Source: Shigella phage PSD9. Taken from it: DNA of 64,000 bases. The DNA lies in the sequence record MZ561532. One strand, given 5' to 3'. Below are positions 35,282 to 39,530 of the stretch, in pieces. Within the stretch, counting starts at the first letter, position 1. Every line of letters begins with the position of its first letter. Made by a program: the position numbers and the translations under genes. Under the pieces are notes generated by a model. The model ran no database searches, was not told the DNA's origin, and saw nothing but the letters and a program-made list of their open reading frames with translations.

Positions 35282-35803
35282 TTAATAACCTCGGTCCTGG
35301 CGAGCAAAGTTCTCGGCATTTTTCAGGTAATACAATTTAAAGATTTCTTCAGCAGTCAGACCAAGACCCTGGAACATATTCAGAACGAAATGGAGAATAT
35401 CAATCATTTCAAATTTAATTTCGAGCTGGTCTTCAGGAGACAAATCGTTAATCAAGGTTTCACGACGTTCAGCATGTTGAGCTTTCCAAGGCTTCCATAC
35501 TGCTGATGCATCTTTTTCACCATTGCTCATACCGCCAAGAGAAGTCAGAAGTTCACGGAATTCATCATCAATATAATCTTTCTGATTACGCAGCCAATCA
35601 ACAACTTCACCTGCAGTAGCCAAATCATCAGGATGACGGTTATATTCAGGTTTATCTTTAGATAAACGAACCTGTAATGATTTCTGCATATCAAGCATAA
35701 CCTGCAGAGGGTCTTTATCTTCATGAATCAGAGCATTAAAATAAGCTTCCTCAGCTTTATCAACACCATCAATCAGGTTTGCGCATTCGTTAAAGTGTGC
35801 CAT
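35282..35803 (-). CDS. 56: dCTP pyrophosphatase (dCTPase/dUTPase) gp56
   Basis: 173-aa ORF; MAHFNECANLIDGVDKA...DPLQVMLDMQ...DDEFRELLTSLG...IFKLYYLKNAENFARQDRGY closely matches recalled T4 gp56. Confidence 0.9.
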   Translation of the reverse strand: MAHFNECANLIDGVDKAEEAYFNALIHEDKDPLQVMLDMQKSLQVRLSKDKPEYNRHPDDLATAGEVVDWLRNQKDYIDDEFRELLTSLGGMSNGEKDASAVWKPWKAQHAERRETLINDLSPEDQLEIKFEMIDILHFVLNMFQGLGLTAEEIFKLYYLKNAENFARQDRGY

Positions 35804-35867
35804 TATATTTTTCCTTTTTCAATTCATTAATAAGTTAGATAATTATAACATTAAAATTTGTAAGCAA

Positions 35868-36236
35868 TTAGGAAGACCAGCCGGTAAATTTACGTTGTCC
35901 TGAATCCCAGTGAACACCTACGTCAGGAGAATACCTATAATTAAAATCACCGTAGGATTCCGAAATTTCTAAAATATATCTTACAAAATATTCACAAAGC
36001 TCATTAGACCATGAATCAGAATACACCACGAAGTGGAAAGATGATTGGTCCTCATCATCGACATCAATCCATACCCGTTTTAATTTACCTTCCGGCGAAT
36101 CATAAACACCTGAAATATATTCACCTTTAACCGAAAGGCTTCCTTCTTCAAAAGCAGTATTCAAAACAAGCCCTAATTCTCCAGGGCTAGATTCTTCTAC
36201 CCAATCATCATGGGTATTCAATAAAATCTTAATCAT
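35868..36236 (-). CDS. Hypothetical strongly acidic protein (122 aa)
   Basis: Track ORF; 23 D/E versus 9 K/R residues. Confidence 0.5.
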   Translation of the reverse strand: MIKILLNTHDDWVEESSPGELGLVLNTAFEEGSLSVKGEYISGVYDSPEGKLKRVWIDVDDEDQSSFHFVVYSDSWSNELCEYFVRYILEISESYGDFNYRYSPDVGVHWDSGQRKFTGWSS

Positions 36237-36245
36237 AATATTTCC

Positions 36246-36728
36246 TTAAAAATCAAATATGTCTAATAACGAATTAGTGGTATTAATATGAACTACTGGG
36301 GCTACATAATCATCCATCCATTCGGGATATCTGCGCCCTTCAGATCGGTCATTAGGGTCTAATGTATTTGCATATGCAAAGTTATATGAAATTATATCTC
36401 GATGTTCTTTAGTGTCACCGACAATATTTAAGATACGTTGGCATAAAAAATCATAGTTATCTTTCATATACTCAATACAATACATATCCTTTAAAGCTTG
36501 GGTTGGCGATACTCCTATTTCCAATTTCTTACGGATAACGGCTTCAACAAGATTACCATCTCCTGCTGAAGGTTCAAAGAATGTATTACCGGCCTTAAAG
36601 GATTCTTCACCACAAAGCTTTAAAAGAATTTTTGTACAGTACTCATTAGTGAATACCTCGTCAGTAGATTGTTGACGCTCACGAGATATTTCACCGTTTT
36701 TTCTTGAATTATCAATTGCTAATTTCAT
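36246..36728 (-). CDS. Hypothetical protein with SAM-binding-like motif (FFEPSAGDGNLV), about 160 aa
   Basis: Track ORF 36246..36731; ATG 36728 lies inside the 3' end of the upstream 499-aa ORF (17-nt overlap); motif resembles MTase motif I. Confidence 0.45.
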   Translation of the reverse strand: MKLAIDNSRKNGEISRERQQSTDEVFTNEYCTKILLKLCGEESFKAGNTFFEPSAGDGNLVEAVIRKKLEIGVSPTQALKDMYCIEYMKDNYDFLCQRILNIVGDTKEHRDIISYNFAYANTLDPNDRSEGRRYPEWMDDYVAPVVHINTTNSLLDIFDF

Positions 36729-38211
36729 CAAGACTTACCCCATTCACAACATTTTCTGCATACTGCCATTCTAAATCGGTAATGTTGAAGCGTTCTTGAA
36801 TCATTTCACGGGTCCACTTCTTGGTAAAATCAACTACAGGAGCGTTTTGAACCATTTTTTTACCGCCGGTACCACCGCCAAGTCCTAAAAAATATTGACA
36901 TGCTACTTTAATAGGGGCGTATGAATAAAATTCAATAGCATTTTCGGCTTCTTCAAAAGTATCAAAAGAGGCCCAAGCCTGTAAAGGTGGCTTTTCTTTT
37001 GTAATACGGGTTTTGGTGTTTGTCATAGCACTATAAAATAACTTGCCCATAATAATTTCAGAATTATCAGATGTAGTTGATGAAGGACCCAATTTCCTAA
37101 TAAAGTTCACATAGTATTCTTTTTCTACACCTTCATAATTATTAAGTTTTTCTTTAGTTCGGGTTTTATCTGCTATAGATTTTGCACTTTTATTATTCAA
37201 AATAATAGAAACAAAATCGTCATTATTATAATTATATTTAGCTTTTGTTCTTCCATTAATTAGGGTAAATCCTTGGGTTTCATTTTTAGAAAATTTTGAT
37301 ATCGCCAAAGCTGTTGTCGGTGAAGCAGAAAAGTACTTATTACCGCCATTGCAATCTATAATAGCATAATTTAGCCTTTTTTTAGCTTCAGGCCTGTGAG
37401 ATATAACTCCCATTGAATATAAAAAAGATGCTGGGGTGATAGATATTACATTATCTGCACATTCCAAGGCTTTATCTAAAAATTTCACATCACTCGTAAA
37501 TGGAGGATTCATGATAACTGTATTAAATTTCATTTTCTTAGGGGCCTTAATGAATTCAAATCCAGAGAAACATCCGAAAGTATCAAATACATATCGAGCT
37601 TTATCTGAATCAGTTGAAATGAATAAGATATCGGAAGTATCGTATCCGATAAGAGATAATAATGAAACAATTTCAAGGGATTCAATAACACAAATACGCT
37701 GAGACCAACCCATTGAATATGCAACCATTATATCACTCATTTCAATAAGCGTTTTTGCTGCTTCAAAAGTCATTACATTAGAGGTTTCCGCTGTTTGGGT
37801 GAATTTACCATCCATGGAGTGGATATAACGGTCATAATGGATTTTGGTATCAGGTTCAGATAAATCAAATTTAACAAAGCAGCGTTTTTCTTCAGAAAGA
37901 CCACGGACGCGGTTTGTTATAGAATCCCAATACTCATCAATGTAAATACCTTCAAGAGAAAAAGCTTCATGCTCATTAAGATTTGATTTAATAATTTCAA
38001 TCATGTCTGAAGGCTTAAGGCCTGATTCAAGAAGCTCTTGGATTTTAGCCAATTTTTCAGCATTACCTTGAGGGTCGGCCTTATTGAATTTTTTAGCTTC
38101 TTCAAAATGTTGCTCAGGCCGAGCACTTACACCTTTACCAAAGTAGAAAGGTTTTTTGTCTTGGTCTACTAAGCGATATACCTGATAAATTGTTTCCTGA
38201 TTGTAAGCCAT
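36712..38211 (-). CDS. GIY-YIG nuclease-like domain fused to an amino-methyltransferase-like domain (NPPF motif), 499 aa
   Basis: N-terminus IYQVYRLVDQDKKPFYFGKGVSARPEQHF resembles the GIY-YIG signature (UvrC/I-TevI type); central FNTVIMNPPF resembles MTase motif IV; occupies the 56-61 interval where T4 has dam. Confidence 0.55.
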   Translation of the reverse strand: MAYNQETIYQVYRLVDQDKKPFYFGKGVSARPEQHFEEAKKFNKADPQGNAEKLAKIQELLESGLKPSDMIEIIKSNLNEHEAFSLEGIYIDEYWDSITNRVRGLSEEKRCFVKFDLSEPDTKIHYDRYIHSMDGKFTQTAETSNVMTFEAAKTLIEMSDIMVAYSMGWSQRICVIESLEIVSLLSLIGYDTSDILFISTDSDKARYVFDTFGCFSGFEFIKAPKKMKFNTVIMNPPFTSDVKFLDKALECADNVISITPASFLYSMGVISHRPEAKKRLNYAIIDCNGGNKYFSASPTTALAISKFSKNETQGFTLINGRTKAKYNYNNDDFVSIILNNKSAKSIADKTRTKEKLNNYEGVEKEYYVNFIRKLGPSSTTSDNSEIIMGKLFYSAMTNTKTRITKEKPPLQAWASFDTFEEAENAIEFYSYAPIKVACQYFLGLGGGTGGKKMVQNAPVVDFTKKWTREMIQERFNITDLEWQYAENVVNGVSLDEISN

Positions 38212-38228: not shown

Positions 38229-38268
38229 TTGATATGTCTATAGTATCATATCTAGCAGGGATGTAAAC
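38229..38268 (-). promoter_or_regulatory. Early promoter with conserved box, upstream of the 499-aa ORF
   Basis: Minus strand GTTTAC-N17-TACTAT-AGACATATCAA. Confidence 0.5.
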
Positions 38269-38304: not shown

Positions 38305-38505
38305 ATGGGCAGTATTTTTTACCAAATCTGGAAATTGGCTGAAAAGAAAGACAAGAAAATGATGTTAGGTTTTCTTGCACTAGATGTGTTCCTTTGGAAT
38401 CTTCTGGTAGTCCCTGTAGCCGCCAGCCAAGGGATAATTTTACCAGCGGTTACAATGGAGCACGTGTTAAGCATAATTGGATTCTTTAGCGGAATTCCTG
38501 CCTAA
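38305..38505 (+). CDS. Small membrane protein (66 aa), late-promoter driven, opposite strand to neighbours
   Basis: ATG with strong SD aggagga; hydrophobic segments (LGFLALDVFLWNLLVVPVAA, LSIIGFFSGIPA); TATAAATA upstream. Confidence 0.5.
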   Translation: MGSIFYQIWKLAEKKDKKMMLGFLALDVFLWNLLVVPVAASQGIILPAVTMEHVLSIIGFFSGIPA

Positions 38506-39530
38506 ATCTTGGAATATTTTGAAAGTCTCATTTTTGCCATTAAACCTTGGGCTATATTAGCTTTCATATATGCCAGTACATCATTTATATCAGCTTTATC
38601 TTTCATAATCATATCATTTATATCTTTAGAAGGCCATGGAGCCTTGTCCCAGAATAGAACCCTTTCGCCAGCATCAACTAATCGTTGCATACGCTTAATT
38701 GTGTCAGGATGGCGGGGTTCATTGTCCATTACCCAGGCACGAGTTTCTTTACACGGAACCATAGCCAAGTCCAACGACCCGCCAGTAATTGCTATTGCAT
38801 TCGGTACGAATAATGAATCGATAGGACCTTCCATTACCCACACCAACTGACGTTCGTCGACAGTATCCATTCCATATATTTTTGTAGCTTGGTCATGAGC
38901 TTTTATTGTAATATATTTTTGTGGAGCATCTTTACGTAAGGCTCGACCCTGAAAACTTTCAATTTGTTTATTCTTATTGAAAATTGGAATAACCAAACGA
39001 GGCTCAGGCATTTCTTTAGAATAGGTCCCTGGATTGACAGAGTTCACCAATGCCGGCCATTCTTTAGTAAACCATAAGCGATTCCATTTGTTTTCAGGAA
39101 TGCAACGTAGTGTTACATATTTGATAATAGGATGGTCCTTTGGCATTCTATCCAGACGTTCACAGAAATTAAGCTTTTCGATGACAGGCATCTTGGCTTT
39201 AATCTTTTCTGATATCTCCACCTTAGGTGCAGCTTGTCTCCCGAACGATTGCTCTTTATGTTTCTCAAGAATATATTCTCGATATAAATCAGGCTCATAT
39301 TCGTATAGATACTTCTTAATTCCTGCTGAATAGTCACAGTTAAAACAGTGCAGCATTACGGAGCCGTCATTGGCCGGATAGGCCCAAAAACGAGCTTTGT
39401 TCTCATCTTTTAGGGAGTCGCCACATACACGACAACGACAGTTTAATTTAAAATCACTACCAGTTACTTGTCTGAATTTAGGTTGATAATTCAAGGCACG
39501 TACAGCAAATTCTCTATCGACATATGACAT
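38502..39530 (-). CDS. 61: DNA primase gp61
   Basis: 342-aa ORF, same length as T4 gp61; zinc-binding CRCRVCGD...CFNC motif; position next to gene 41. Confidence 0.85.
   Translation of the reverse strand: MSYVDREFAVRALNYQPKFRQVTGSDFKLNCRCRVCGDSLKDENKARFWAYPANDGSVMLHCFNCDYSAGIKKYLYEYEPDLYREYILEKHKEQSFGRQAAPKVEISEKIKAKMPVIEKLNFCERLDRMPKDHPIIKYVTLRCIPENKWNRLWFTKEWPALVNSVNPGTYSKEMPEPRLVIPIFNKNKQIESFQGRALRKDAPQKYITIKAHDQATKIYGMDTVDERQLVWVMEGPIDSLFVPNAIAITGGSLDLAMVPCKETRAWVMDNEPRHPDTIKRMQRLVDAGERVLFWDKAPWPSKDINDMIMKDKADINDVLAYMKANIAQGLMAKMRLSKYSKI

Follow-up and report, generated by a model that had tools for sequence, protein, structure and literature searches.

Two overlapping genes between the primase and dCTPase genes of Shigella phage PSD9

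We analyzed 64,000 nucleotides of Shigella phage PSD9 (sequence record MZ561532), hereafter called the window. PSD9 is a T4-like phage, and the regions that flank the locus described here are ~95% identical to those of Dhakaviruses of the JS98/IME08/MX01 group. Between the genes for primase gp61 (38502-39530, minus strand) and dCTPase gp56 (35282-35803, minus strand) lie two overlapping genes, also on the minus strand. The first one (36712-38211) encodes a 499-aa protein identical to 'hypothetical protein PSD9_103', hereafter the large protein. It is made of a GIY-YIG nuclease domain, a connector, a glycine-less pseudo N-terminal half of a methyltransferase fold (N*), a catalytic half carrying the motif NPPF, and a target-recognition domain. 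The second gene (36246-36728) encodes the small protein (P0009, 160 aa), which we assign to the intact N-terminal half (N-half) of a gamma-class methyltransferase. The arrangement proposed in a preliminary description of this DNA, i.e. a GIY-YIG domain joined in one protein to a methyltransferase-like domain with NPPF, and the S-adenosylmethionine (SAM) motif on the next, overlapping open reading frame (ORF), is borne out by Pfam, AlphaFold2 (AF2) and motif conservation.

The small gene lies in the +1 frame relative to the large one and overlaps it by 17 nt. Its ORF is 161 aa long when extended to a TTG at 36731, as previously described, and its second codon is the ATG at 36728, from which the 160-aa product and the 17-nt overlap are counted. 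This ATG falls within the stretch that encodes the large protein's conserved C-terminal SLDEI. The GC content is lower within the large gene than around it, but modestly so (0.30-0.34 vs 0.38-0.43), and the gene body is therefore less markedly AT-rich than initially stated.

The large protein begins with a CMoRE-like GIY-YIG domain

Residues 1-105 of the large protein (37897-38211, minus strand) form the GIY-YIG domain. Residues 22-104 matched Pfam family PF22945 (LEM-3_GIY-YIG; E=3.8e-9, 37.1 bits vs a cut-off of 27). When a profile of eight homologues was compared with the PDB, it matched CMoRE's GIY-YIG domain (9U7U, 9U75; E=1.7e-5) and, weakly, T4 endonuclease II (E=0.034). Y9, Y12, Y23, G25, R31, H35, E87 and N100 are invariant in eight sequences down to ~51% identity, and the motif spacing is that of a GIY-YIG domain, with Y9, V11 and Y12 (GIY) followed by Y23-x-G25 (YIG), then by R31, H35, E87 and N100. 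AF2 predicted the topology β-β-α-α-β-α (strands 9-15, 21-28 and 71-78; helices 31-41, 51-62 and 80-93) with predicted local distance difference test (pLDDT) values of 91-98, and a Foldseek search with this model matched viral proteins annotated as GIY-YIG or COG3680.

Pfam reported neither the I-TevI/UvrC-type GIY-YIG family PF01541 nor NUMOD or helix-turn-helix modules at E<=1, and the region C-terminal to the nuclease domain has a methyltransferase fold. The GIY-YIG signature noted in the preliminary description is thus real (PF22945), whereas its attribution to the UvrC/I-TevI type is not supported, and we assign the domain to a LEM-3/COG3680/CMoRE-like subfamily.

The closest solved relative of this domain belongs to CMoRE/PD-T4-3, a bacterial type IV enzyme in which a separate DNA-sensing domain steers the GIY-YIG domain (PMC12923530). 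The sensor of CMoRE reads 5-hydroxymethylcytosine (5hmC) or glucosyl-5hmC, whereas the partner domain in PSD9 is a methyltransferase-type reader. Furthermore, the PSD9 gene is carried by a phage whose DNA is presumed, from gp56 alone, to be cytosine-modified.

The large protein carries a gamma-class catalytic half preceded by a glycine-less pseudo-half

The AF2 model of the large protein (pLDDT 86.9; predicted template modelling score 0.83) contains both a GIY-YIG fold and a Rossmann-type methyltransferase fold, as a structure prediction was expected to show. Residues ~170-300 form a complete Rossmann-type fold in which β1 (173-176), αA, β2 (195-198), αB and β3 (215-217) are followed by β4 (229-234), by NPPF immediately after it (residues 235-238; 37498-37509, minus strand) and then by the C-terminal domain. 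NPPF is invariant in an alignment of 20 sequences of the family. Its position directly after β4 and the gamma-class fold matches agree with its earlier identification as motif IV.

The best Foldseek matches in the PDB were the Eco57I-family enzyme CamA (E=1e-8), PH1948, type I HsdM, M.TaqI, the type IIG enzyme BpuSI and M.BseCI. PH1948 is a putative RNA methyltransferase, to which the profile alignment spans β2-β5; every other match is an N6-adenine DNA methyltransferase of the gamma class that has a recognition domain. What remains of the catalytic half, together with the target-recognition domain (residues 239-499; 36715-37497, minus strand), is delineated by these fold matches and by phrog_314 and phrog_11371, and the protein ends with a conserved 'APVVDFTKKWTREM..F.ITD.EW.YAE' tail.

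N* (residues 166-227; 37531-37716, minus strand) comprises β1 (CVIES), E177 and E180, β2 (ILFIS) and β3 (FEF). Its motif I loop, CVIESLEIV, contains no glycine and is ~3 residues shorter than in canonical relatives. The observation that the large protein has no obvious Gly-rich motif I is hence correct as to the glycine, but it overlooked this Gly-less copy (β1 173-176). N* is among the best-conserved parts of the large protein, and we interpret this conservation as a sign that N* is not a product of decay. Its clade signature is 'hhhh-x-x-h-E-h', with a near-invariant glutamate (E180), and is preceded by motif X, which reads HTPxxLC in most members.

A crude motif scan was applied to 84 NPPx-bearing proteins drawn from the 150 best cluster representatives. 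About 40 carry N*, about 10 a canonical Gly loop, and 31 start at β4 ('MKFDxxIxNPPY'). The family became visible at this width through an exhaustive search of representatives; a word-indexed search returned only 8-9 close homologues per query, also when a family alignment served as input. Two homologues, P0064 (41.1 bits) and P0163 (32.8 bits), exceed the Pfam threshold for Eco57I.

The small protein is a predicted SAM-binding half-domain

The Gly-rich motif I that the large protein lacks is found in the small one, where motif X (DEVFT), motif I (FFEPSAGDGN, 36552-36581), motif II (CIEYMKDN) and motif III (YANTLD) are all conserved. They take the forms TGEVFTP, EPxAGDG, IEYMKDN and ANTLD, respectively, in relatives, and the protein ends with a conserved DxSEGRxYPxW tail. 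The small protein matched PHROG 21201 ('DNA methyltransferase') with E=4e-64 and, weakly, type II methyltransferase models of PADLOC. No Pfam match was obtained for the PSD9 protein; partner proteins of relatives matched Pfam N6_Mtase (26.8 bits vs 20.4 for the partner in metagenomic contig L018).

AF2 predicted a half Rossmann fold, αX-β1-αA-β2-αB-β3, with a pLDDT of 72.6 overall and >85 in the core. The ratio of nonsynonymous to synonymous divergence (dN/dS) of the small gene between PSD9 and a second Dhaka-like contig of metagenomic origin, L020, is 0.04. The resemblance of EPSAGDG to motif I, pointed out initially, is supported by the conserved motifs and the PHROG match, and we conclude from the sequence that the small ORF is most simply read as the N-terminal half of the same methyltransferase fold, with a genuine motif I.

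Relatives are fused, split and circularly permuted

The two halves occur in relatives in several arrangements, with the motifs distributed over two adjacent ORFs or joined in either order. P0163 is a conventional N-C fusion with the same EPSAGDG at residue 44 and NPPY at residue 123. L015 and L019 encode N and C as separate genes in conventional order, with a C-half that lacks N* and starts 'MKFD..NPPF'; the components of L015 are 50-65% identical to those of PSD9. Circularly permuted C-N fusions are encoded by Aeh1, PX29, phiAS5 (415 aa), a second gene of Aeromonas phage Ah1, L014 and P0021, and are represented by phrog_11371. N*-C followed by N is found at the PSD9 locus and nine others. Finally, a Nitrososphaeria metagenome-assembled genome (MAG; L027, 158-1924) encodes a single N-N*-C chain of 588 aa, in which an intact N-half (EVFTP ... 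DLCAGYG) is followed by a Gly-less N* (ILVLYNCEIV) and then by NPPY. The existence of split and permuted forms implies that the catalytic half can be completed by a small-type half, either in trans or in permuted order in cis. Circular permutation has already been noted for an EcoKI-like adenine methylase of T4-like jumbo phages (PMC7824862). Among the possibilities raised in the preliminary description, a split or permuted methyltransferase is one of the two that the evidence favors.

We also observed that N*-C is joined to different effector domains. GIY-YIG is attached to it in PSD9, the Klebsiella phages, phi-ST2 and P0041; in Ah1, P0028 and P0037 the attached domain is T5orf172, which belongs to the GIY-YIG clan. 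In a Bacteroidales MAG (L028, 3391-11601), a 1160-aa ResIII-helicase::N*-C protein is followed by a small N-half and then by a PLD-family nuclease. Genes for ResIII/DEAD helicases adjoin nuclease-less N*-C in the phage-like contigs L018 (694-4796) and L026 (1300-4131). In L032 (4827-9904) and L033 (1174-3385), an N-half and an Eco57I-type methyltransferase precede a T5orf172::ResIII protein (966 aa). By their gene content, the MAG relatives L028, L032 and L033 look like restriction-modification operons or neighborhoods. The Eco57I-type methyltransferase of the L032/L033 type carries a Cys-rich insert. Genes for a PDDEXK_15 protein and a lysozyme lie nearby in L018.

Aeromonas phage Ah1 carries both a permuted C-N methyltransferase (415 aa; L011 3155-4402) and a T5orf172::N*-C + small-N pair (L002 2643-4820). 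The pair of Vibrio phage phi-ST2 (L003 3486-5644) lies inside a 7-deazaguanine biosynthesis cluster (QueF, FolE ... QueD, QueC), where its neighbors are a gene for an HNH endonuclease and a 458-aa ORF without an assigned function. The formation of mdPreQ1 in phi-ST2 has been assigned to DpdM (DUF3109), which was validated with the VH7D homologue (PMC10516641). A role in 7-deazaguanine modification was set aside, since DpdM accounts for mdPreQ1 in phi-ST2 and no such cluster lies near the PSD9 cassette; the placement of the phi-ST2 pair may be incidental.

The gene pair is conserved with variable junctions

An intact N-half gene adjoins N*-C in 10 of the 13 contexts, i.e. in PSD9, the Klebsiella phage PKO111, phi-ST2, Ah1, the metagenomic contigs L020, L016, L021, L018 and L023, and the Bacteroidales MAG L028. 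At least 10 diverged systems share the pair. The pair is found in 11 Klebsiella Jiaodaviruses at the same primase/gp56 locus, and its proteins share 50% and 62% identity with those of PSD9. A scan of 185,579 species genomes returned 10 loci, all of them in MAGs, which suggests that the family is mainly phage-borne.

The junction between the two genes varies. PSD9 and PKO111 share the same +1 overlap, and the ATG of the small ORF occupies the same codon position in both, preceded by a conserved GGGG. The phi-ST2 genes overlap by 4 nt in the -1 frame, those of Ah1 are in frame and separated by a stop and a 39-nt gap, and the other pairs have overlaps of 1-4 nt or gaps of 12-105 nt. Because no single slippery mechanism fits such varied junctions, we consider the two ORFs to be separate genes that are mostly translationally coupled.

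A few members of the family seem broken. In KpV477 (KX258185/NC_031087; 15184-16639), the large gene matches in two pieces and the UniProt product is 381 aa long, and P0019 is a 151-aa GIY-YIG-only product that is out of frame after residue ~114. Both could reflect decay or assembly errors. The literature search found no characterization of the family, its sole mention being one line on a 'GIY-YIG nuclease domain' gene in KpV477, and neither the N*-C|N arrangement nor its fusion to a nuclease was found in the searchable literature.

The recognition module has been exchanged between alleles

Compared with its closest alleles, the large protein of PSD9 is a mosaic, with 93-100% identity over residues 1-235, 43-80% over residues ~240-450 and 87-100% over the last ~50 residues. 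Synonymous divergence (dS) follows the same zones. Between PSD9 and L020 (5001-6494), dS is 0.05-0.11 over codons 1-235 and ~2.1 over codons 236-450 (window 36862-37506), with a nonsynonymous divergence (dN) of 0.26 in the latter. The small gene has a dS of 0.95, and the primase gene of 0.19. These zones indicate that the catalytic-half/recognition module and, to a lesser extent, the small partner were replaced by recombination. The GIY-YIG domain is 100% identical between alleles with a swapped recognition module. Furthermore, the breakpoint between alleles falls at NPPF, which is also where the two-gene members of the family are divided. Swapping of recognition modules typifies enzymes whose DNA specificity is driven to change by conflict.

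The cassette occupies a variable slot between the primase gene and gp56

The interval between the primase gene and gp56 measures ~340 bp in IME341 and most other Dhakaviruses, in which the slot is empty. The cassette is missing from ~45 Dhakaviruses and present in PSD9 and L020. The Dhakavirus MX01 instead carries ORF28, of unknown function, and Dam (259 aa) in this slot, in agreement with the early assignment of the PSD9 genes to the dam locus. PSD9 and MX01 share a common leader made of TTTACA-N16-TACTAT, a GGAG ribosome-binding site and an ATG, and only the cargo differs. In PSD9, GGAG lies ~8 nt ahead of the ATG of the large gene at 38211, and PKO111 has a similar promoter/ribosome-binding-site cassette. 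The leader contains a putative sigma-70-type, early-like promoter (TTTACA-N16-TACTAT with TG upstream; 38240-38267, minus strand) that we assigned by consensus scan and conservation; the scan score alone is not above chance, and the assignment involves no statistical excess. Short, similar AT-rich sequences mark the insert edges. From these features (window 38240-38267 and 35804-35867; L004 1745-1840; L005 1745-1840 and 3178-3240), we regard the primase/gp56 interval as a slot for exchangeable cargo that is equipped with an early-type promoter.

Between PSD9 and PKO111, the cassette is more diverged (50-62% identity) than the flanking primase (70%) and gp56 (77%) genes; a recent exchange between the two genera is therefore not apparent.

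A third ORF (122 aa; 35868-36236, minus strand) is conserved next to the pair. It directly follows the small gene in the 11 Klebsiella phages (55% identity) and in L020, and is probably a third component of the cassette, as judged from this conserved position. No match to it was found in Pfam, PHROGs, NCBIfam or PADLOC, and its counterpart in PKO111 is unannotated. On the other side of the slot, a 66-aa hydrophobic ORF (38305-38505, plus strand) lies on the strand opposite to all its neighbors, overlaps the primase stop codon by 4 nt and is always found between the primase gene and the cargo slot. It is kept in IME341 (gp250), MX01 (ORF29) and L020, and has a homologue with 35% identity in PKO111 (gp113).

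A putative two-subunit nuclease-methyltransferase and its alternatives

We favor, with about even confidence, the view that the cassette encodes a two-subunit, early-expressed, restriction-modification-like nuclease-methyltransferase housed in the variable primase/gp56 slot. The cassette would be transcribed from its own early-type promoter, in a slot that holds Dam or nothing in other T-even-type phages, and the 17-nt overlap would couple the translation of the small subunit to that of the large one. In the large subunit, the methyltransferase and recognition module would select the site and hold the target adenine in the NPPF pocket, and the GIY-YIG domain, predicted to be intact, would cut. 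As N* has lost the glycine loop, SAM would be brought by the small subunit through its intact motifs X and I-III. The complex would methylate adenine at a specific sequence when the SAM-loaded small subunit is engaged, while its GIY-YIG domain would cut DNA. A likely use of such an enzyme would be against the DNA of the host or of a co-infecting phage, and the phage's own DNA could be protected by this methylation, by a cytosine modification presumed only from gp56, or by both.

Several observations weigh against this view. The large protein scored 14.2 bits against Pfam Eco57I, below the threshold of 25.3, and was not recognized by PADLOC or NCBIfam models. The three PDB sequence matches of the small protein, all to adenine DNA methyltransferases in motif X + I register, are weak (E=0.06-0.5), and its model alone gave no significant fold match in the PDB. 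In addition, AF2 packs N* where the small subunit would need to sit. A profile-profile comparison between N* and the small family aligned motif X alone, with a probability of 13.6%, which is why N* is named a pseudo N-half on structural and positional grounds and not by sequence homology. No nearby intact N-half was seen in three N*-C contexts (L026, L030 and L031), and all homologues in UniProt and GenBank owe their names ('hypothetical', 'GIY-YIG domain-containing' or 'DNA methyltransferase') to annotation alone.

The proposed enzyme would work by the logic of Type IIG/IIL enzymes such as Eco57I, MmeI and BpuSI, but with another kind of nuclease and with its cofactor site split. Like these, the large protein has a nuclease, a connector, a gamma-class NPP(Y/F) methyltransferase and a recognition domain on one chain, and a restriction-modification-like fusion, one of the options listed in the preliminary description, is favored by the evidence. 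In contrast with them, its nuclease is GIY-YIG instead of the usual PD-(D/E)XK, and it is encoded by a T4-like phage and not by a bacterium. The PSD9 large protein also lacks the intact SAM site that would make a single chain self-sufficient, its SAM loop being Gly-less and the intact half residing on a second, putatively co-translated protein.

Two-polypeptide methyltransferases such as M.AquI and M.EcoHK31I exist, and the split enzymes known so far are C5-cytosine methyltransferases divided within their variable region. The PSD9 pair resembles known split or permuted methyltransferases in having motifs over two overlapping ORFs or in the order IV...X-I, with fused permuted relatives in Aeromonas T4-like phages. 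It differs from the split enzymes in that an adenine methyltransferase is cut between β3 and β4, its catalytic half keeps a conserved pseudo-copy of the missing half, and a nuclease is attached.

T4 Dam shares with the PSD9 pair the gene 61-gene 56 locus and, in MX01, the promoter cassette, and both are presumably adenine methylases. However, T4 Dam is a single 259-aa chain of the alpha class (DPPY) that lacks a nuclease, and the two differ in class and motif order and have no sequence or architectural relation. Pfam, PHROGs and NCBIfam reported no D12-class (T4 Dam-type) family for PSD9, and together with the NPPF motif and the gamma-type fold this led us to reject a relationship to T4 Dam.

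Chlorovirus restriction-modification systems (e.g. CviAI) provide a precedent for a lytic virus that directs a nuclease at host DNA and keeps its own DNA methylated. The likeness lies in a lytic virus carrying a site-specific nuclease and a methylase, which in PSD9 are predicted. The chlorovirus enzymes are separate, conventional Type II enzymes, whereas the role of the PSD9 pair is proposed from sequence.

An alternative that we regard as unlikely is that the cassette is a homing-type mobile element, in which the dead methyltransferase of the large protein would serve the GIY-YIG nuclease purely as a sequence-specific DNA-binding and base-flipping domain. The nuclease would cut cassette-less relatives in mixed infections, the cassette would be copied during repair, and the small protein would act as a methylase with an accessory or immunity role. 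The presence/absence polymorphism at a conserved locus among Dhakaviruses, the filling of the same slot in Klebsiella Jiaodaviruses and the degenerate cofactor loop of the large protein are all consistent with this scenario. Furthermore, PHROGs labels the related phrog_314 'homing endonuclease', T5orf172 and GIY-YIG domains are typical of phage homing nucleases (PMC10448857, PMC8263062), an HNH gene adjoins the phi-ST2 copy, and some copies seem broken, a frequent condition of selfish genes.

Conversely, the retention of an intact SAM-binding partner and of an invariant NPPF down to ~20% identity argues for real methyl transfer, and homing nucleases normally do not need a methylase because their insertion destroys their own target site. 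The greater divergence of the cassette than of its flanks in the comparison with PKO111 and the lack, in Pfam at E<=1, of an I-TevI/UvrC-type GIY-YIG and of the NUMOD-type modules of Seg enzymes also speak against homing. The related suggestion that a homing domain was fused into a dam-like gene does not hold, as the gamma-class family is unrelated to T4 Dam and only shares its cargo slot.

It is less probable still that the two polypeptides form a protective orphan adenine methyltransferase, analogous to Dam, with a GIY-YIG domain that is inactive or non-cleaving (e.g. used for DNA binding). The shared slot and promoter cassette of Dam in MX01 would fit such a role, as would nuclease-less relatives (the Aeh1 C-N fusion, the L015/L019 N|C splits and N*-C proteins of ~400 aa) and the circularly permuted EcoKI-like adenine methylases of T4-like jumbo phages (PMC7824862). 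However, both the invariance of the GIY-YIG catalytic residues throughout the clade and the complete identity of the domain between swapped alleles point to strong purifying selection on the nuclease. The repeated, independent fusions of nucleases or helicases to N*-C also argue against an orphan methylase.

Finally, a single gene broken by a frameshift or a sequencing error, a pseudogene, or a programmed +1 frameshift producing one permuted methyltransferase can be dismissed as very improbable in spite of the fused C-N relatives, the +1 overlap and the few members that seem broken, given that independent isolates, and metagenomes as well, keep the two-ORF layout across +1, -1 and in-frame stop-and-gap junctions, that the small ORF of PSD9 and PKO111 keeps its own ATG behind a conserved GGGG, and that both ORFs are under purifying selection.

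To judge by its motifs, the system carries two N-halves, one dead and one live, for each catalytic half. In the AF2 model, N* fills the position that the small subunit would need, yet N* and N are conserved together over very deep divergence, and in one case within one chain, which suggests either an exchange between them, and possibly a switch, or docking of the small subunit elsewhere. We raise as a speculative and rather improbable model a competition of N* with the SAM-loaded small subunit for the β4 edge, the two sharing the catalytic half between a methylating state, in which the small subunit is docked with SAM by NPPF, and a cutting state, in which N* is docked and the GIY-YIG domain is licensed. 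If true, self-protection and attack would be coupled to SAM availability or subunit stoichiometry, and the swapped recognition module would serve conflicts between phages or between phage and host. Such half-domain exchange would represent a principle of regulation new to methyltransferase-nuclease enzymes and would explain why a dead and a live N-half are both retained.

Implications for T-even-type phages and methyltransferase evolution

The PSD9 cassette brings together parts not previously seen combined, namely a GIY-YIG nuclease, a gamma-class adenine methyltransferase and a predicted trans-acting SAM-binding half. The N*-C + N family is broad and uncharacterized, and it poses the question of what an intact half-domain does when a dead copy completes the fold. 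Furthermore, the family shows nearly every stage expected for the circular permutation of a methyltransferase, including fused, split and permuted forms and an apparent duplication intermediate, so that a long-standing evolutionary model of permutation becomes testable with natural proteins. A compact nuclease-methyltransferase whose recognition domain is modular and swapped in nature might also be useful as a tool enzyme, provided that its specificity can be read. If our interpretation is correct, a T-even-type phage carries a restriction-modification-type enzyme in the classical Dam slot, which would bear on how phages attack the DNA of their hosts and rivals and protect their own.

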